Positions 6,144-58,577 of a DNA stretch of 64,000 bases are shown in pieces. Origin of the DNA: Sphingomonas sp. (GTDB taxonomy: Bacteria > Pseudomonadota > Alphaproteobacteria > Sphingomonadales > Sphingomonadaceae); NCBI RefSeq assembly GCF_036402235.1, contig NZ_DASWTG010000041.1, positions 2,381 to 66,380 of the forward strand, in the 5' to 3' direction. A program made the translations under genes and the position numbers. Each line of letters starts with the position of its first letter. The stretch's first letter is position 1. The notes under the pieces are model-generated. The model made no database searches. It was not told the origin of the DNA and saw nothing but the letters and a program-made list of their open reading frames with translations.

Positions 6144-6270
6144 TCCTCCCCGGAGGGGGAGGGGGACCAGCGAAGCTGGTGGAGGGGTAGCTCACCACTG
6201 GCGTCACCACTGGTGGAGAATACCCCTCCGTCACCGCTGCGCGGTGCCACCTCCCCCTCCGGGGGAGGAG
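6144..6270. repeat. CIR/MITE-like palindromic element, copy 1
   Basis: TCCTCCCC...GGGGAGGA termini with internal hairpins (accagcgaagctggt; caccgctgcgcggtg); lies between convergent genes. Confidence 0.85.
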
Positions 6271-8221: not shown

Positions 8222-8244
8222 ACTCCTCCCCTTCAGGGAGGAGT
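8222..8244. repeat. Minimal hairpin related to the CIR-like family
   Basis: actcctccc-cttca-gggaggagt, a perfect 9-bp stem matching the family termini; between convergent rpmG and divK. Confidence 0.55.
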
Positions 8245-8248
8245 GACA

Positions 8249-9569: not shown

Positions 9570-10024
9570 CTGACGTCCACGCCAAGCTCGCCGAACTCGG
9601 CCTGACCCTGCCCGAGGCCGCCGCGCCGGTCGCCGCCTATGTGCCGACCGTGCTGGCGAGCGGGCTGCTCCACATCTCGGGCCAGCTTCCGTTCAAGGAC
9701 GGGGCGGTGATGACCGGCCGCCTCGGTGAGGATCGCGACGTCGCCTATGGCCAGGAGGCGGCCGAGCGCTGCGGCCTGATGCTCGTCGCGCAGATCGGCA
9801 AGGCGCTGGGCGGGTTCGATCGGGTCGAGCGCATCGTCAAGCTCGGTGTCTTCGTCAACTCGGCGCCCGGCTTCACTGAGCAGCCCCAGGTCGGCAACGG
9901 CGCGTCGGAGTTGATGGAGAAGCTGTTCGGCGAAGCGGGGCGCCACGCCCGCGCCGCGGTCGGCGTCGCGGCGCTGCCGCGCGGCGCGGCGGTCGAGGTC
10001 GACGCGATCGTCGCGGTTCGCTGA
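9566..10024 (+). CDS. RidA family protein
   Basis: PVAAYVP, ISGQLP, GRHARAAVGVAALPRGAAVEVD. Confidence 0.9.
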   Translation: MTDVHAKLAELGLTLPEAAAPVAAYVPTVLASGLLHISGQLPFKDGAVMTGRLGEDRDVAYGQEAAERCGLMLVAQIGKALGGFDRVERIVKLGVFVNSAPGFTEQPQVGNGASELMEKLFGEAGRHARAAVGVAALPRGAAVEVDAIVAVR

Positions 10025-11166: not shown

Positions 11167-11637
11167 TCAGTTCGGGGTCGGCGTGGGCGTAGGCGCCGGG
11201 GCCGGAGCTGCCGGGGTCGCGCCGGTTGCGGCACGCGCGTCGCGGCCGTCGCCCTGCGGGGCGGCGACGATGTCGCGGGTGGTGCTGCCCTTGTCGATCA
11301 CATTGGTGCCGGGGCTGCCTACGGACGAGCGCACGCCGACATCGGCGGCGCTGTTGCCGCCCGCGGCCTGGATCGCCGCCTGCTCGGATGCGCTGCGCTG
11401 GGCCGATCCGCCGAACAGCGCGTCGAGCGCCTGCTGCGACGGGCCGCCCGAATCCTGCGGGCGCGGTGCGCCGGGCTGGGGCGGGCGCAGCGCGAAATCG
11501 GGCGGGATCACCAGCGGCGCCTGACGTGCCACGGCGAATTCGTCGGGCCGCTTGCGGTTGAGCATCCCGCCGCTGCCGCAGCTCACGAGCAGCATCGCCG
11601 ATCCGCCGACGGCGGCGATGAGGACAGACTTACGCAT
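11167..11637 (-). CDS. DUF3035 family lipoprotein
   Basis: MRKSVLI...LLVSC lipobox; PDEFAVARQAPLVIPPDFALRPPQPG motif; downstream of lspA. Confidence 0.8.
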   Translation of the reverse strand: MRKSVLIAAVGGSAMLLVSCGSGGMLNRKRPDEFAVARQAPLVIPPDFALRPPQPGAPRPQDSGGPSQQALDALFGGSAQRSASEQAAIQAAGGNSAADVGVRSSVGSPGTNVIDKGSTTRDIVAAPQGDGRDARAATGATPAAPAPAPTPTPTPN

Positions 11638-12179: not shown

Positions 12180-15100
12180 TCATCCAACTACCTGGGCGCA
12201 GCGGTGGCACAGCGCGCCCTCGGCTTCAACCTCCGGCAGCAGCCGCCAGCAACGGCCGCACTTCTCATGGTCCGTGCGCGCGACGGTGACGTCGCCGTCC
12301 TGAAGCTTCACATCGGCCACGATGAACACCTCGGCCAGCTCCGCGGCGGGGCGCAGCATCTCGGGCACCGTCACCTCGGCCTCGAGGCTCGACCGGATCG
12401 TCTTCTCGCGGCGATAGGGCTCGATCGCCTCGGTCACCTTCTCGCGCAACGCGCGGATGTCGGCCCACTCGGTCGAGATCGCGTCGTCGCCGGGCAGCGC
12501 GGGCAGCTCGGGCCATTCGAGGAAATGGACCGACCCGTCCTCGCTCGGATAGCGCGCCTGCCACACTTCCTCGGCGGTGAAGGCGAGGATCGGCGCGGCG
12601 TAGCGGACCAGCGCGTGGAACAGCAGGTCGAGCACGGTGCGATAGGCGCGGCGCTTGAGGCTGTCCGGGTCATCGCAATAGAGGCAGTCCTTGCGGATAT
12701 CGAAGAAGAAGGCCGACAGGTCCTCGTTCATGAAGTCCGACAGGGCGCGGGCGTAGCGGTTGAACTCGAACGCTTCCGCCGCCGCGCGCAGCTCGACGTC
12801 GAGCGCGCCGAGCTTGTGGAGGATGTAGAGCTCGAGCTCGGGCATCTTGCCCACCGCGACCTTCTCGGCATCGGTGAAGCCGTCGAGCGCGCCGAGCAGA
12901 TAGCGGAAGGTGTTGCGGATCTTGCGGTAGGCGTCGCCGGTGCCGGCGAGCACTTCCTTGCCGATGCGGACGTCCTCGAAATAGTCGGTCTGCGCGACCC
13001 ACAGGCGCAGGATGTCGGCGCCGCTCTCGCCGATGATCTTGAGCGGATCGACGACGTTGCCGAGGCTCTTCGACATCTTGCGGCCCTGCCCGTCGAGCGC
13101 GAAGCCATGGGTGAGCACGGCGTCGTACGGCGCGCGGCCGCGCGTGCCGGCGCTTTCCAGCAGCGACGACTGGAACCAGCCGCGATGCTGGTCGGAGCCT
13201 TCGAGATAGAGGTTCGCGCGGGTTCCTTCCCCGTAACGCGCCTCGATCACGAAGCTGTGGGTCGAGCCGCTGTCGAACCACACGTCGAGGATGTCGTTGA
13301 CCACCTCATAGTCTGCGAGCGCATAGTTTGACCCGAGCAGCGCCTGATGGTCCGCGCCGAACCACGCGTCGGCGCCGCCCTGACGGAAGGCGTCGAGGAT
13401 GCGCGCGTTGACCGCTTCGTCGCGCAGATAGTCGCCGGTCTGGCGGTGGACATAGAGCGGGATCGGCACGCCCCAGGCGCGCTGGCGGCTGATCACCCAG
13501 TCCGGACGGCCTTCGACCATCGATCGGATGCGGTTGATCGAACGCTCCGGCACCCACCGCGTCCGCTCGATCGCATCGAGCGCGAGGTGGCGGAGGGTGG
13601 GGGAATTGGTCGGGTTGACGATCGGGCCGAAGCCGGCATCGGCGGCGAAGGCGGGGAGTTCGTGGGGGACGGAACCTGCGATTCTTCCCGTCGTCCCAGC
13701 TCTTCCCGTCACCCCAGCGAAAGCTGGGGTCTCCTGCGGCTCCTGCCCCGCCCCACGGCCAGAGGCCCCAGCTTCCGCTGGGGCGACGATGTTGTGGCGA
13801 GCGCCGTCCATCGGGATGAACCACTGCGGCGTGCAGCGGAAGATGATCTTCGCCTTGGAGCGCCACGAATGCGGATAGCTGTGCGCGAAATCGTCCGACG
13901 CGGCGAGCAGCGCGCCGGCTTCACGCAGGTCGGTGCAGATCGGCCCGTCGCTGGCGACGAACTTCTTGTTGATGACCGATCCCTGCCCGCCGAGCCACAG
14001 CCAGTCGGGGCGGTAGAAGCCCGCATCGTCGACCGCGAACACCGGATCGATGCCGTGCGCCTTGCACAGCAGGAAATCGTCCTCGCCATGATCGGGCGAC
14101 ATATGGACGAGGCCGGTACCGGCATCGGTGGTGACGAAGTCGCCGGGCAGGAACGGACGCGGCTTGGCGAAGAAGCCGCCGAGATGGTGCATCGGGTGGC
14201 GGGCAGCGGCGCCGGCAAGTTGGATGCCCTTGATGGTCAAGGCTGGCGAAGCTGCCTTCGGATCAATCGCATCGTCGAAGAAGAAGCGGATACCCGAATA
14301 GCGAGCCGCATCCAAGCCAGCCAACTTAAGCGCACGACTGAGCCGGTCACCAAATGCTTCGATCAACTCATCGGCGATCAAGACTCGGGCGCCTACGGGA
14401 AAGCCGATGGTGCGAAGTGCGGCTTCGACCTCTTCAATCGAGACGGCGCCTGCGTCCGTCCCAGACAACCCGACGGCGGTCGGGTCGAGCGTCAAGAGAC
14501 GGTACTCGACCTCCTCCCCATAGGCGAGCGCCTGGTTCACCGGGATCGTCCACGGCGTGGTCGTCCAGATCACGGCATGCGCGCCGACCAGCTCGGGCGC
14601 GTTCGGCGCCTCCGTGATCTCGAACGCGACGTCGATCTGGGTCGAGACGACGTCCTCATATTCGACCTCGGCCTCGGCCAGCGCGGTCTTTTCGACTGGC
14701 GACCACATCACCGGCTTGGCGCCGCGATAGAGCTGGCCGCTGGTCGCGAACTTCAGAAGCTCGCCCGCGATCGTCGCCTCGGCGTCGGACTTCATCGTGA
14801 GGTACGGATCGTCCCAGTCGCCGATCACGCCGAGCCGCTTGAACTGCTCGCGCTGGATGCCGACCCACTTCTCCGCATAGGCGCGGCATTCGGCGCGGAA
14901 CTCGGCCGGAGGGACCTCGTCCTTGCTCTGCTTCTTGGCGCGATACTGCTCCTCGATCTTCCACTCGATCGGCAGGCCGTGGCAGTCCCAGCCGGGGACA
15001 TAGGGCGCGTCCTTGCCCATCAGGCTCTGGCTGCGGACCACGATGTCCTTGAGGATCTTGTTCATGGCGTGCCCCATGTGCAGGTCGCCATTGGCGTAGG

Positions 15101-15293
15101 GCGGGCCATCGTGAAGGATGAAGCGCTCGCGCCCCTTCCGCTGCTCGCGCAGCCGGTCATAGACGCCGATCTTCGCCCAGCGTTCGAGGATCGCGGGCTC
15201 CTTGGCGGCAAGGCCCGCCTTCATCGGGAAGTCGGTCTTCGGCAGGAAGACGGTGTCGCGCCAGTCGCGGGCGGAATCGGTGGTTTCGGTCAT
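12180..15293 (-). CDS. ileS: Isoleucine--tRNA ligase (type 1) carrying two in-frame insertions/replacements
   Basis: PPYANGDLHMGH, WTTTPWT, GTGLVH, KMSKS and C-terminal CGRCWR...CHRC zinc finger. Start MTETTDS at 15293, 1037 aa. Confidence 0.97.
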   Translation of the reverse strand: MTETTDSARDWRDTVFLPKTDFPMKAGLAAKEPAILERWAKIGVYDRLREQRKGRERFILHDGPPYANGDLHMGHAMNKILKDIVVRSQSLMGKDAPYVPGWDCHGLPIEWKIEEQYRAKKQSKDEVPPAEFRAECRAYAEKWVGIQREQFKRLGVIGDWDDPYLTMKSDAEATIAGELLKFATSGQLYRGAKPVMWSPVEKTALAEAEVEYEDVVSTQIDVAFEITEAPNAPELVGAHAVIWTTTPWTIPVNQALAYGEEVEYRLLTLDPTAVGLSGTDAGAVSIEEVEAALRTIGFPVGARVLIADELIEAFGDRLSRALKLAGLDAARYSGIRFFFDDAIDPKAASPALTIKGIQLAGAAARHPMHHLGGFFAKPRPFLPGDFVTTDAGTGLVHMSPDHGEDDFLLCKAHGIDPVFAVDDAGFYRPDWLWLGGQGSVINKKFVASDGPICTDLREAGALLAASDDFAHSYPHSWRSKAKIIFRCTPQWFIPMDGARHNIVAPAEAGASGRGAGQEPQETPAFAGVTGRAGTTGRIAGSVPHELPAFAADAGFGPIVNPTNSPTLRHLALDAIERTRWVPERSINRIRSMVEGRPDWVISRQRAWGVPIPLYVHRQTGDYLRDEAVNARILDAFRQGGADAWFGADHQALLGSNYALADYEVVNDILDVWFDSGSTHSFVIEARYGEGTRANLYLEGSDQHRGWFQSSLLESAGTRGRAPYDAVLTHGFALDGQGRKMSKSLGNVVDPLKIIGESGADILRLWVAQTDYFEDVRIGKEVLAGTGDAYRKIRNTFRYLLGALDGFTDAEKVAVGKMPELELYILHKLGALDVELRAAAEAFEFNRYARALSDFMNEDLSAFFFDIRKDCLYCDDPDSLKRRAYRTVLDLLFHALVRYAAPILAFTAEEVWQARYPSEDGSVHFLEWPELPALPGDDAISTEWADIRALREKVTEAIEPYRREKTIRSSLEAEVTVPEMLRPAAELAEVFIVADVKLQDGDVTVARTDHEKCGRCWRLLPEVEAEGALCHRCAQVVG
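13707..13788. repeat. CGTC-tagged REP doublet inside ileS, read in frame
   Basis: cgtcaccccagcgaaagctggggtctc...gaggccccagcttccgctggggcgacg; arms nearly identical to the intergenic copy at 21640-21720. Confidence 0.92.
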
Positions 15294-15472
15294 TTGGGGG
15301 CGGGGATTAGCTTGTGTGGGGCGGCGGGGGAAGAAGATTGGTTCAGCAGGGCGCGGAACGTGCTTGCAATGTTGGATTTCGCCTGCTTGGCTCGTTCGGC
15401 GGCATCGCGCCGCCGCTCTTTGAAATTCACCGTCAGGGTTGCCGCGAGCGCGTGAAAACGGCGCTGATAGTG

Positions 15473-16411
15473 TCAACCAAGTGTATACTTCCGCAGCGCG
15501 TTGCGCGCCGCGTCGCAATCGGCGGCGATCTGGGCCTTCAGCGCATCGAGCGAATCGAACTTCGCCTCGTCGCGGAGGTATTCGATCAGCTCGACCTCGA
15601 TGGTCTGGCCGTAGAGGTCGCCCGAAAAGTCGAAGAAATAGGGCTCGAGCAGCTCGACTGGCGGCTCGATACTCGGGCGGATGCCGAGATTGGCGGCTCC
15701 CTCTAGGACGCGACCGTCCGAGAGGCGTCCCCGCACCGCATAGATGCCGTAGCGCGGCCGGAGATAATTGCCGAGCTGGAGGTTGGCGGTGGGATAGCCG
15801 AGCTCGCGCCCGAGCTTCGCGCCCGGCTCGACCACGCCCTCGATCGCGAAGGGGCGGGTGAGCAAAGCGGCGGCGTCGCGCGGCTTGCCGGCCTGCAGCG
15901 CCTCGCGGATGCGGCTCGATGAGATGACCTCGTCGCCATCCTCGACCGGGGCGACGGTATCGACGCTGAAGCCGAGCTCTTGGCCGAGCGCATGCAGCAC
16001 GCCGACATCGCCGTCGCGGCCCTTGCCGAAGGTGAAGTCGGCGCCGGTGACGACCCCGCCCGCGCCGATCAGCTCGACGAGGCGCTGCTCGGCAAAGGCG
16101 CGCGCTGGCAGCCCGGCGAGCGCGGCGTCGAACCCGAACACCAGCATCGCGTCGGCGCCGGCCTCGCCGAACAGCCGCTGGCGCTGGTCGAGCGTGGTCA
16201 GGCGGAAGGAGGGCGTCTGCGGCCGGAAATAGCGCATCGGGTGCGGATCGAAGGTGGCGACGATCGCCGGTCTTCCCTCGGCGCGCGCGCGCTCGACCGC
16301 GCGGCCCACCACCGCTTGGTGCCCGCGATGAAATCCGTCGAAATTGCCGAGCGCCACGATCCCGCCGCGCAGATGCGCCGGAACCGCGACCGCTCCGTCC
16401 AGCCGCTCCAT
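15473..16411 (-). CDS. ribF: Riboflavin kinase/FAD synthetase
   Basis: ALGNFDGFHRGHQ, GADFTFG, ISSSRIR, GRELGYPTAN and LEPYFFDF motifs; start MERLD at 16411. Confidence 0.95.
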   Translation of the reverse strand: MERLDGAVAVPAHLRGGIVALGNFDGFHRGHQAVVGRAVERARAEGRPAIVATFDPHPMRYFRPQTPSFRLTTLDQRQRLFGEAGADAMLVFGFDAALAGLPARAFAEQRLVELIGAGGVVTGADFTFGKGRDGDVGVLHALGQELGFSVDTVAPVEDGDEVISSSRIREALQAGKPRDAAALLTRPFAIEGVVEPGAKLGRELGYPTANLQLGNYLRPRYGIYAVRGRLSDGRVLEGAANLGIRPSIEPPVELLEPYFFDFSGDLYGQTIEVELIEYLRDEAKFDSLDALKAQIAADCDAARNALRKYTLG

Positions 16412-17637: not shown

Positions 17638-17732
17638 CGTCATGCCGGACTCGTTCCGGCATCCACGGTGCCGCGCATCCAGTCGGTGCATGTGTGCGAC
17701 ACGGTGGACCCCGGCACAAGGCCGGGGTGACG
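17638..17732. repeat. CGTC-tagged REP doublet (ccgg subtype)
   Basis: cgtcatgccggactcgttccggcatccac...gtggaccccggcacaaggccggggtgacg. Confidence 0.88.
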
Positions 17733-17733
17733 A

Positions 17734-19579: not shown

Positions 19580-19705
19580 AATCCTCCCCCGCCAGGTGGG
19601 GAGGTGTCAGCAAGGCTGACGGAGGGGGCGGATGCCAGACCGCCAGCGGTGCGCGTCCTCCCCCTCCGTCGCCTTCGGCGCCACCTTCCCCTGGCGGGGA
19701 GGATT
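19580..19705. repeat. CIR/MITE-like element, copy 2
   Basis: AATCCTCCCC...GGGGAGGATT terminal inverted repeats with internal hairpins. Confidence 0.88.
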
Positions 19706-21639: not shown

Positions 21640-21720
21640 CGTCATCCCAGCGAAAGCTGGGATCTCAAGCCGCAAGCGAGCGGCCTGAGGCACGAGGCCC
21701 CAGCTTTCGCTGGGGCGACG
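21640..21720. repeat. CGTC-tagged REP doublet (cccagcgaaagctggg subtype)
   Basis: cgtcatcccagcgaaagctgggatctc...gaggccccagctttcgctggggcgacg. Confidence 0.92.
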
Positions 21721-24317: not shown

Positions 24318-24442
24318 AATCCTCCCCCGCCAGGGGGAGGTGGCAGGCGCAGCCTGACGGAGGGGGCGGACGCGATCACGCCCGTCGGGTGTCCTCTCCC
24401 TCCGTCGCCTTCGGCGCCACCTCCCCTTGGCGGGCGAGGATA
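24318..24442. repeat. CIR/MITE-like element, copy 3
   Basis: aatcctcccccgccagggggaggtggca...ccctccgtcgccttcggcgccacctcccc...gaggat; highly similar to copy 2. Confidence 0.88.
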
Positions 24443-32859: not shown

Positions 32860-32865
32860 GGTAAA

Positions 32866-32998
32866 AATCCTCCCCGGAACGGGGAGGGGGACCGCCGCCG
32901 AAGGCGGTGGTGGAGGGGGTCCGAGGCAATGGAATCCCTCGCCTCGGACCCCCTCCGTCAGCGCTTCGCGCTGCCACCTCCCCGTGCCGGGGAGGATT
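32866..32998. repeat. CIR/MITE-like element, copy 4
   Basis: aatcctcccc...ggggaggatt; long central stem (ggtccgaggc...gcctcggacc) with GAATC in its loop. Confidence 0.88.
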
Positions 32999-33002
32999 TA
33001 GT

Positions 33003-35624: not shown

Positions 35625-35673
35625 CCGTGCCGCCTCGGAGGTGGCGACATCGTTTGAATCCCTCTCTTCGTTC

Positions 35674-35769
35674 CGTCATTTTCGCGCAGGCGGGAATCCA
35701 TTCGCCGCGACGATGCGGATCGATCCTCGACGGCAGAAAGAATGGATTCCCGCCTGCGCGGGAATGACG
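35674..35769. repeat. CGTC-tagged REP doublet (cgcgcaggcggga subtype)
   Basis: cgtcattttcgcgcaggcgggaatccatt...aatggattcccgcctgcgcgggaatgacg. Confidence 0.88.
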
Positions 35770-35807
35770 GCGGGAAAGGTTCGCGCTCTGCCATCACCTC
35801 CGCCTGA

Positions 35808-37689: not shown

Positions 37690-37791
37690 AATCCTCCCCC
37701 GCCAGGGGGAGGTGTCAGCGAAGCTGACGGAGGGGGAGGACGCGAAACGCCGGTCGGGGAGTCCTCCCCCTCCCCCTAGCGGGGGAGGATT
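37690..37791. repeat. CIR/MITE-like element, copy 5 (internally shortened)
   Basis: aatcctcccccgccagggggaggtgtcagcgaagctgacggagggg...gggggaggatt. Confidence 0.85.
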
Positions 37792-39120: not shown

Positions 39121-39217
39121 CGTCACCCCGGCCTCGTGCCGGGGTCCAGCGGGCGGCAAGAATCGCCCGTGCGGCTCTTTGCGGCACGGTGGACCCCGGA
39201 ACAAGTCCGGGGTGACG
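39121..39217. repeat. CGTC-tagged REP doublet (ccgg subtype)
   Basis: cgtcaccccggcctcgtgccggggtcca...tggaccccggaacaagtccggggtgacg, 20 bp upstream of hom. Confidence 0.88.
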
Positions 39218-58481: not shown

Positions 58482-58577
58482 CGTCATCCCCGCGCAGGCG
58501 GGAATCCATTCTGGCTGGCCGACCGGATCGAGCCGTCACATCAGCCTCAATGGATCCCCGCCTGCGCGGGGATGACG
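58482..58577. repeat. CGTC-tagged REP doublet (cgcgcaggcggga subtype)
   Basis: cgtcatccccgcgcaggcgggaatccatt...aatggatccccgcctgcgcggggatgacg. Confidence 0.9.

Follow-up and report, generated by a model that had tools for sequence, protein, structure and literature searches.

The locus described here raises the question of how a palindromic repeat comes to lie, in frame, inside an essential gene, and whether such an arrival is a single or a recurrent event. The stretch analysed, hereafter the window, comprises 64,000 nucleotides of Sphingomonas sp. (contig NZ_DASWTG010000041.1 of assembly GCF_036402235.1), and the gene in question is ileS, encoding the isoleucyl-tRNA synthetase (IleRS), in which an earlier note on the sequence had marked a repetitive extragenic palindromic (REP) element. 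We found an intact inverted dimer of REP units of the CGTC-1 type within a lineage-specific loop of ileS, and at least eight unrelated types of palindrome at the same loop in related bacteria. Our favoured reading, which we hold to be probable, is that near-neutral selfish palindromic elements insert, in frame, into a permissive IleRS loop that is hit recurrently.

An intact CGTC-1 dimer within the ileS reading frame

CGTC REPs are mostly intergenic and often form inverted dimers with spacers of 20-100 bp; the CGTC-1 unit starts with CGTC and has an 8-bp stem, almost invariably with complementary A/T in first and second position, a 4-nt loop and a 3-nt unpaired tail of consensus CCA, with variants allowed (PMC3733652). 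As shown in Table 1, the ileS loop holds a dimer that resembles this family in tag, stem, loop, inverted dimer form and alphaproteobacterial host. The repeat search returned two arms of 27 nt each, 89% complementary and separated by a 28-nt spacer, in such a way that CGTC/GACG lie at the outer ends of both units (13785-13788 and 13707-13710). The stems, ACCCCAGC-GAAA-GCTGGGGT and GCCCCAGC-GGAA-GCTGGGGC, have 8 bp each and 4-nt loops, the first pair being A-T in one unit and G-C in the other. Unlike the CCA consensus, the unit tails read CTC (coding strand GCCTC / GAGAC).

The host gene keeps the marks of a working IleRS. The minus-strand open reading frame (ORF) 12180-15518 includes ileS, with its start (MTETTDS) at 15293, and the product scores 771 bits with TIGR00392, the NCBIfam equivalog model for ileS (cutoff 621), shares 73-87% identity with isoleucine--tRNA ligases annotated in Sphingomonas, and keeps HMGH, KMSKS and the C-terminal Cys cluster. 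The complete in-frame doublet described in the earlier note was thus reproduced in its arms, its CGTC tags and the open frame of 1037 aa. By conceptual translation, the insert would contribute around 27 residues rich in Ala, Gly and Pro, the dimer encoding the predicted peptide (I)VAPAEAGASGRGAGQEPQETPAFAGVT, that is (I)VAPAEAGAS-GRGAGQEPQE-TPAFAGVT, with a predicted junction peptide ...HNIVAPAEAGASGR.... Since the 82 bp of the dimer are not divisible by 3, its precise excision from the RNA would break the reading frame, which speaks against the element being spliced out. Three facts lead us to infer translation of the insert: the open frame in an essential gene, a length not divisible by 3, and the in-frame position of the elements in every carrier.

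Solved bacterial IleRS structures (8c9f, 8wnf and 1ffy) align on both sides of the loop point and have 0-5 residues there, an alignment consistent with the earlier note's placing of the segment in a possible surface loop after the CP1 domain.

An assembly error at the repeat, or a non-functional copy of ileS, was weighed as well, having in mind that repeats can mislead assemblers and that the source is metagenome-like, the soil metagenome run X1 containing 99% of the sampled words of the window. This reading is effectively refuted. A 548-nt contig of X1 runs across the loop (13463-14010) and shows 0 differences; the loop of a related strain, in run X2, is likewise covered, with 20 differences and the same insert; and the independent sample L081 shows a near-identical architecture. 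The same element is present in the loop of L087, a long isolate-genome contig, complete genomes such as that of S. suaedae (CP042239) hold repeats at the same loop, and the frame is open with all catalytic motifs kept. In X1 the depth climbs from around 16 to 925 along 13705-13731, and other contigs have loose ends that begin exactly at the arm borders; this jump shows the arm to be a repeat of high copy number in the community sampled.

Unrelated palindromes at the same loop of IleRS

The best 120 IleRS cluster representatives, all from the Sphingomonas clade and of 927-1035 aa, were compared together with that of the window (121 sequences). Where the motif pattern could delimit it, the loop measured 16-82 aa. 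Recognisable repeat-derived peptides were detected at the loop in 65 of the 121 sequences (54%), and they belong to at least eight unrelated palindrome types (Table 1), the type counts including 6 sequences that match two type patterns; in at least one of these six, P0005, the additional assignment to family a (CGTC-1) is a loose match and not a second element. The other 46% of these close relatives, among them the well-sampled S. koreensis group, showed no repeat peptide there. The loops of the orthologues are neither identical nor free of REPs, contrary to what would have refuted the earlier note.

At the DNA level, the best inverted repeats in the loops of the surveyed loci have arms with 24/26 to 35/39 matched bases. 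The fetched genes (P0001, P0009, P0003, P0005, P0029, P0060 and P0008) show conserved synteny (ribF-ileS-lspA-DUF3035, as far as each contig goes), and 5 fetched orthologues are 84-90% identical to the IleRS of the window in aligned residues. The codons that border these unrelated elements are the same, D-G-x-(R/K/H) on the upstream side and (G)R-x-x-G-(S/A)-A-x-D-E-L-P on the downstream side, and in P0009 (L082) no intact element lies between them. Genome contigs were also scanned for ileS, the matches listed forming a taxonomically scattered set (close relatives were fetched individually). Among the matches listed, the same pattern was found outside Sphingomonas in Sphingobium (L010, with CGTC-1), Tsuneonella (L021), Tianweitania (L046), Devosia (L034 and L051) and an unclassified proteobacterium (L064), and in Sphingomonadales metagenome bins labelled by class or order (L015, L018 and L023).

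As the eight families have no sequence similarity, at least one insertion each is needed to explain them. Peptide families g and h of a first classification are one DNA repeat (CTCCCCTCCCGCTTGCGGGAGGGGTCGGGGG); it (CTCCCCTCCCGCTTGCGGGAGGGG...) is read in two frames (L089 11370-11485 vs L090 1505-1612), in such a way that SPLPLAGGAGGG appears in one species and LPSRLREGSGEG in another. Family c lies in L006 inverted relative to L004 and L085, as judged by the off-centre spacer hairpin GTCTC-NNN-GAGAC. These data support the recurrent landing pad proposed in the earlier note, with unrelated families between the same codons, one family in two frames and another in two orientations. In a neighbour-joining tree of the masked IleRS the loop types interleave; this tree is poorly resolved and possibly affected by recombination, and the number of events was not derived from it.

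Copies outside ileS were found for five of the families tested (a, c, d, e and g). No copy outside ileS was found for family b, and no second copy for family f, a nested palindrome (L088). For CGTC-1, described as repeated and mostly intergenic, the window itself contains a second dimer at 21640-21720, whose arms match those of the loop copy at 25/27 and 26/27 positions (counted by eye on an alignment), as the earlier note had stated, and dimers of other subtypes; further copies lie in L083, L085 and L087. Together with the metagenome depth spike, these copies dispel the doubt that the arms might have no other genomic occurrence. The 16-mer core has 4 matches in the window, all within the two CGTC-1 dimers, at least 4 matches being also obtained in 3/100 shuffles. 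The copy at L083 2033-2116 is 94% identical to the loop copy of the window over 84 nt, spacer included, and both share around 8 nt beyond the GACG tag; the ileS loop of L083 itself holds a family-b element. In S. suaedae (L085), the family-c loop copy (11456-11566) and that of the ribF-ileS spacer (9843-9954) are 95.5% identical over 112 nt, again with the spacer included, in inverted orientation and with the loop copy 1.5 kb downstream. Families c and g are units of 100-115 bp with conserved spacers, similar in look to MITEs (miniature transposable elements with inverted repeats).

Units so alike over their whole length, spacer and all, at sites that are not orthologous agree with a dimer moving as one piece. 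The REPINs (REP doublets forming hairpins) mobilised by RAYTs (REP-associated tyrosine transposases) have this in common, their mobile unit being an inverted REP pair with its spacer (Bertels & Rainey 2011, PMC3116915; Nunvar et al. 2010, PMC2817692). As an observation of its own, the S. suaedae pair suggests short-range copying or gene conversion.

The use of other positions in ileS was examined through an inverted-repeat scan of 79 ileS genes (238 kb), with arms of at least 20 nt, at least 85% complementary and spaced by at most 110 nt. Twenty strong inverted repeats were returned, 13 of which, not phylogenetically independent of each other, start 4-42 nt after the QWFxxMD codons. With respect to these codons, the remaining ones lie at -544 nt (L036), -477 and +1142 nt (L015), +795 nt (L076) and +1180 nt (L027), plus a weak match at -706 nt and one that is really in the ribF-ileS spacer. 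In addition, P0055 has a CGTC-type insert near aa 369-372 (LLRHPGESRGP...GTPDQVRGD), with the CGTC unit in another frame. These secondary sites fall either within the variable region of CP1 or within the C-terminal half, so other ileS sites are used, but rarely.

Two side observations concern variation of IleRS itself. Two quite different element-free forms of the loop, DRPAG..AEDESAAGAADFAGFMPLAP as well as DGKRG..DELPAFA..AGFGPxVNP, occur intermingled in IleRS of close relatives whose remaining sequence is 82-90% identical, which hints at recombination within ileS among Sphingomonas lineages. Besides, aa 269-358 (14220-14489, minus strand), in the region of the CP1 editing domain, are hypervariable, with lengths of 47-120 aa, and relatives 80-90% identical elsewhere share there only a short ..(F/L)(L/I)VA..L...F..R.. 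core; this segment is not repeat-like, and cassette exchange, diversifying selection or relaxed constraint are possible causes.

Probable older copy, junction duplication and conserved arms

An 18-bp imperfect tandem duplication had been taken in the earlier note as a sign of repeated insertion. The duplication is present (13683-13700 vs 13701-13718, 16/18 identical, 89%) and spans the TGACG tag together with the 7 nt that end the stem and 6 nt of flank. It is common to P0001/L081, a relative that is 87% identical (AGVTGR/DGVTGR), and missing from L087. We therefore place it, as a duplication of the junction and not a separate insertion, in the ancestor that the window and L081 have in common, and slippage accounts for it most simply.

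What does point to repeated insertion in the window is an older decayed copy downstream. Its peptide, GRIAGSVPHELPAFAADAG, matches the dimer peptide GEGAGQEPHETPAFAGVTG at 11 of 19 ungapped positions, a score equalled by 2 of 20000 shuffles (this and the following shuffle counts are somewhat optimistic, as the comparisons were picked after inspecting the sequences). At the DNA level the signal is weak, the 27-nt arms alone giving a local match of 10/12 that is equalled by 5.9% of background ileS windows. The loop of P0009 (L082), without an intact element, matches the CGTC-1 dimer peptide at 12 of 26 ungapped positions (8 of 20000 composition-preserving shuffles), and at the DNA level 42 of 78 positions agree in register with the L087 dimer, a value reached by 0 of 20000 codon shuffles. 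Moreover, a series of the same decay, in register with the conserved motif GF.P, can be followed in a sister clade, where L091 has an intact 3' arm directly before GF.P and L092 a decayed arm at the same place. The third codon positions of the old copy have changed from the A/T of the repeat (CCA GCT TTC GCT) to C (CCC GCC TTC GCC), in such a way that the palindrome is lost and the peptide kept. As for the second decayed PAFA arm that the earlier note placed near 13635-13660, the case for this putative copy is strong at the peptide level and in register, with the arms-only DNA test at chance level.

The segment ELPAFAxxAGFGP is kept across many lineages after the loss of the palindrome, with codons at host usage, and CGTC-1 is in an Ala/Gly/Pro-rich frame in every ileS loop seen. 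Both facts would be expected if repeat-derived residues had been exapted as a flexible extension of IleRS, for instance for binding of tRNA or of a partner. We consider this unlikely, since the peptide of the intact dimer is absent from close relatives or swapped for unrelated ones, and the solved IleRS structures do without the loop. That close relatives lack the element or have unrelated sequences there argues that the insert probably has no function of its own, and it would survive because the loop tolerates length or is dispensable.

The favoured reading leaves room for two causes of recurrence, hits that are frequent and hits that are merely tolerated and filtered by selection. In the first case, the old REP remnant or a resident palindrome would attract new palindromic elements, either as a hairpin target for a mobilising enzyme or through template switching or gene conversion with nearby intergenic copies. 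New elements of 6 families indeed lie only a few codons apart, in the decayed dimer's 5' part; nearby spacers are stocked with family c (ribF-ileS of S. suaedae), family g (ribF-ileS of L087) and family a (M19-ribF of L083); and REPs have been cited as targets for insertion sequence elements (reference 12 in PMC3733652). However, short loops without the DELPAFA remnant are hit as well (e.g., L004, L006, L036 and L046), no target-site duplication or common target motif was seen at the element junctions, no dedicated transposase has been reported for CGTC REPs (PMC3733652), and the clustering at the N-terminal edge of the loop could equally reflect constraint on the conserved AGFGP part. Active targeting is thus conceivable, although we would not expect it to be the answer.

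The comparison with two other carriers of the same element showed how its parts evolve. With respect to L081, the window gene is 88% identical in amino acids, 86% in nucleotides and 78% at fourfold sites, with 53/54 positions conserved in the arms and 24/28 in the spacer; with respect to L087, the values are 86%, 84%, 73%, 53/54 and 20/28. A hairpin selected at this point of ileS, and supplied by any palindromic family, could explain such arms, acting as a translational pause after CP1 emerges, as an RNase or stability site in the ileS-lspA transcript or as a protein-binding DNA site. The RNA of the region is predicted to fold into a single long hairpin, very stable (-70.6 kcal/mol, z = -5.8 vs shuffles), and unrelated families place palindromes there in the 54% of relatives mentioned above. 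Against it, 46% of close relatives, S. koreensis group included, have none, and old copies (window 13632-13688 and L092) lose the palindrome and keep the peptide. There is no T-run after the hairpin, so it is not an intrinsic terminator, and Rfam gave no match at gathering thresholds, with only spurious long-hairpin miRNA models and BjrC68 below them. Furthermore, the arms of intergenic copies are likewise conserved across species, for which reason we attribute arm conservation to homogeneity of the REP family and not to ileS. A functional hairpin is, in our opinion, quite improbable.

Several points weigh against the near-neutral insertion that we favour. The arms are conserved beyond the neutral rate, with 53/54 positions identical compared with 73-78% of fourfold sites and 71-86% of the spacer. 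A purely neutral account has its main difficulty here, as it needs gene conversion, recent re-insertion or selection on the hairpin. The new insertions all lie within a few codons of each other, with a loop of around 100 nt available, which is a hint of targeting rather than of tolerance alone. As the window is a part of the genome, a further copy of ileS may exist outside it. Among RNA runs no transcriptome of this organism was found, the runs matching only 5-7% of the sampled words, so that the case for translation is built on the frame being intact in an essential gene. Finally, an AlphaFold2 model of IleRS from an alignment of 64 close relatives reached a predicted local distance difference test (pLDDT) of 60 and a predicted template modelling score (pTM) of 0.41, with even the catalytic core below 50, and it was not used for the claim of a disordered surface loop, the core itself being poorly predicted; that part of the earlier note is left to the alignment with solved structures.

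Regarding the rest of the window, 12 palindromic elements were located in it, 6 CGTC-tagged dimers and 6 of a GGGGAGG type, and only that of ileS is intragenic. The other 11 of the 12 lie outside genes, two of them in long stop-to-stop frames, upstream of the likely start; the dimer at 39121-39217 is near the upstream end of such a frame, probably before the true start. The GGGGAGG-type repeats resemble the G-rich families b, c and g of IleRS loops in other species, and that at 24319-24441 is just upstream of the PBP1A start. The CGTC-1 dimer between prfB and PBP1A occupies the same syntenic spot in at least three species (window 21640-21720, L085 3640-3721 and L087 3377-3460) and keeps the conserved spacer GCCTCA.GCCGC.CGCTTGCGGCTT, which indicates that it is old and stable, unlike the turnover at the ileS loop.

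Table 1. Features of the ileS loop and related palindromic elements (window coordinates unless a locus is named)
Feature	Position	Strand	Basis or remark
ileS, isoleucine--tRNA ligase (type 1), 1037 aa, intact	12183-15293	minus	ORF and TIGR00392
Lineage-specific loop, exactly 69 codons (aa 497-565), QWFIPMD to TLRHLAL	13599-13805	minus	ORF translation
Intact inverted dimer of CGTC-1 REP units, 82 bp, CGTC tags outermost	13707-13788		Inverted-repeat search
5' arm (coding strand), CGTC-G-CCCCAGC-GGAA-GCTGGGG-C-CTC, 8-bp stem, 4-nt loop	13762-13788	minus	26/27 to 21694-21720 (by eye)
Dimer spacer, 28 nt	13734-13761	minus	Spacer type also in L081 and L087 loop copies and L083 intergenic copy
3' arm (coding strand), GAG-A-CCCCAGC-TTTC-GCTGGGG-T-GACG	13707-13733	minus	25/27 to 21640-21666 (by eye)
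18-bp imperfect tandem duplication of dimer 3' junction (AGVTGR/AGTTGR)	13683-13718	minus	Repeat search
Putative older decayed CGTC-1 dimer remnant (spacer and 3' arm), peptide GRIAGSVPHELPAFAADAG	13632-13688	minus	Peptide match
Intergenic sibling CGTC-1 dimer, prfB/PBP1A spacer (synteny with L085 and L087), different spacer	21640-21720		Arm alignment
CGTC-tagged inverted dimers of other stem subtypes (ATGCCGGA.., TTCCCGCGCAGGCGGGAAT, ACCCCGGC..GCCGGGGT)	~17638-17733, 35673-35770, 39121-39217, 58482-58577		
Palindromes with CCTCCCC-N3-4-GGGGAGG cores	6148-6264, 19598-19690, 24319-24441, 32865-32999, 37690-37791 (also 8222-8245)		
Family a outside ileS	L083 2033-2116 (M19-ribF spacer), L085 3640-3721, L087 3377-3460		
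Family c outside ileS	L085 9843-9954, L054 6692-6795, L083 3235-3272		
Family d outside ileS	L058 611-702		
Family e outside ileS	L009 5924-5998, L032 6151-6180		
Family g outside ileS	L087 9848-9958 (ribF-ileS spacer)		
Loop type a (CGTC-1), V.PA.AG.S...P.FAG.T			n = 31
Loop type b, SLS.REREGA..ARKGEGD...PLPLP.GEG			n = 7
Loop type b2, GRGLGEG...NPLP.GERE			n = 2
Loop type c, SPSPSGEGLGVG...PNPSPEGEGL			n = 8
Loop type d, VRAEPVEA...LRQAQGER			n = 3
Loop type e, FSTSLETNG...SSEVEK			n = 6
Loop type f, LPGAGRSGLIGE			n = 5
Loop type g, SPLPLAGGAGGG or LPSRLREGSGEG			n = 6

Known repeat systems and a proposed history of the loop

The presence of palindromes inside genes, to which the earlier note had appealed, is confirmed in the literature. 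Rickettsia palindromic elements (RPEs) are in-frame palindromes in genes whose protein products work and are often essential (Ogata et al. 2000, 2002; Claverie & Ogata 2003, as cited in PMC3733652), and RPE-6 of R. conorii has been assigned to CGTC-1 (PMC3733652). A table of intragenic CGTC-1 units from S. wittichii, S. alaskensis and E. litoralis has been published (Di Nocera, De Gregorio & Rocco 2013, BMC Genomics 14:522, PMC3733652) and includes a CGTC-1 dimer in the IleRS of Erythrobacter litoralis, ELI_13550, at aa 467-488 of 965 (VTPAEAGVSPGHEQIPASAGMT). In that study, intragenic insertion at the same site was noted only for Xanthomonas recB, and REPs inside other genes of one functional class were stated to lie at different sites (PMC3733652).

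The element of the window shares the gene and the reading frame with the E. litoralis entry, and the residue numbers point to what is apparently the same loop. Unlike that table row, the loop in the clade of the window holds at least eight unrelated families in many genera, with old and new copies nested. As with the RPEs, the palindrome lies in frame in an essential gene that appears to be kept intact, judging from its open frame and equivalog-level score; unlike them, the host is a free-living, GC-rich soil bacterium and not a reduced intracellular genome, and a single site is used by many families instead of one family being spread over many genes. MITEs with implications for protein evolution have reportedly been described in Coxiella burnetii. 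In contrast to MITEs in coding sequences, no terminal-repeat relationship to a transposase or target-site duplication was identified at the ileS loop. In-gene RPEs, in-gene CGTC REPs and the E. litoralis IleRS dimer are already known, whereas the multi-family hot spot, the nested old and new copies and the codon amelioration of the old copy are apparently unreported; in open-access papers and bioRxiv preprints no IleRS hot spot of several REP families was found described beyond that table row.

The following course of events is proposed. An older CGTC-1 dimer would have landed first in a long, permissive and lineage-specific loop of this essential enzyme and decayed into the conserved ELPAFAxxAGFGP segment, its codons drifting to the host usage of G+C at third positions, so that the palindrome was destroyed and the peptide kept. 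At least six families would later have landed in the 5' part of the remnant in different lineages, the remnant possibly seeding insertions. In the lineage of the window, a fresh non-autonomous inverted CGTC-1 dimer would have inserted in frame, followed by the 18-bp slippage duplication at its 3' junction, and the insert would be transcribed and translated as part of IleRS. A bolder version, which we regard as doubtful, is that the loop works as an active trap, in which a REP remnant attracts, swaps and "digests" palindromes into host-adapted code, with ELPAFAxxAGFGP as a conserved and possibly functional product.

Rickettsia provides the best-known cases of palindromic repeats lying in frame, and there is still debate on where such repeats come from and what becomes of them. 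The IleRS loop offers a natural time series of them in free-living, culturable bacteria, with empty sites, fresh elements of around eight families, a junction duplication, and eroded palindromes whose peptide persists. This makes it possible to test whether insertion is targeted or tolerated, whether the arms are conserved by gene conversion or by selection, and whether repeat-derived peptides become functional parts of an essential enzyme. At a practical level, the length variation at the loop and in the CP1 region can confuse ileS phylogeny, ortholog clustering and structure prediction in Sphingomonadales. If the active trap were true, the loop would display a life cycle of selfish DNA into protein, from insertion through codon amelioration to exaptation.

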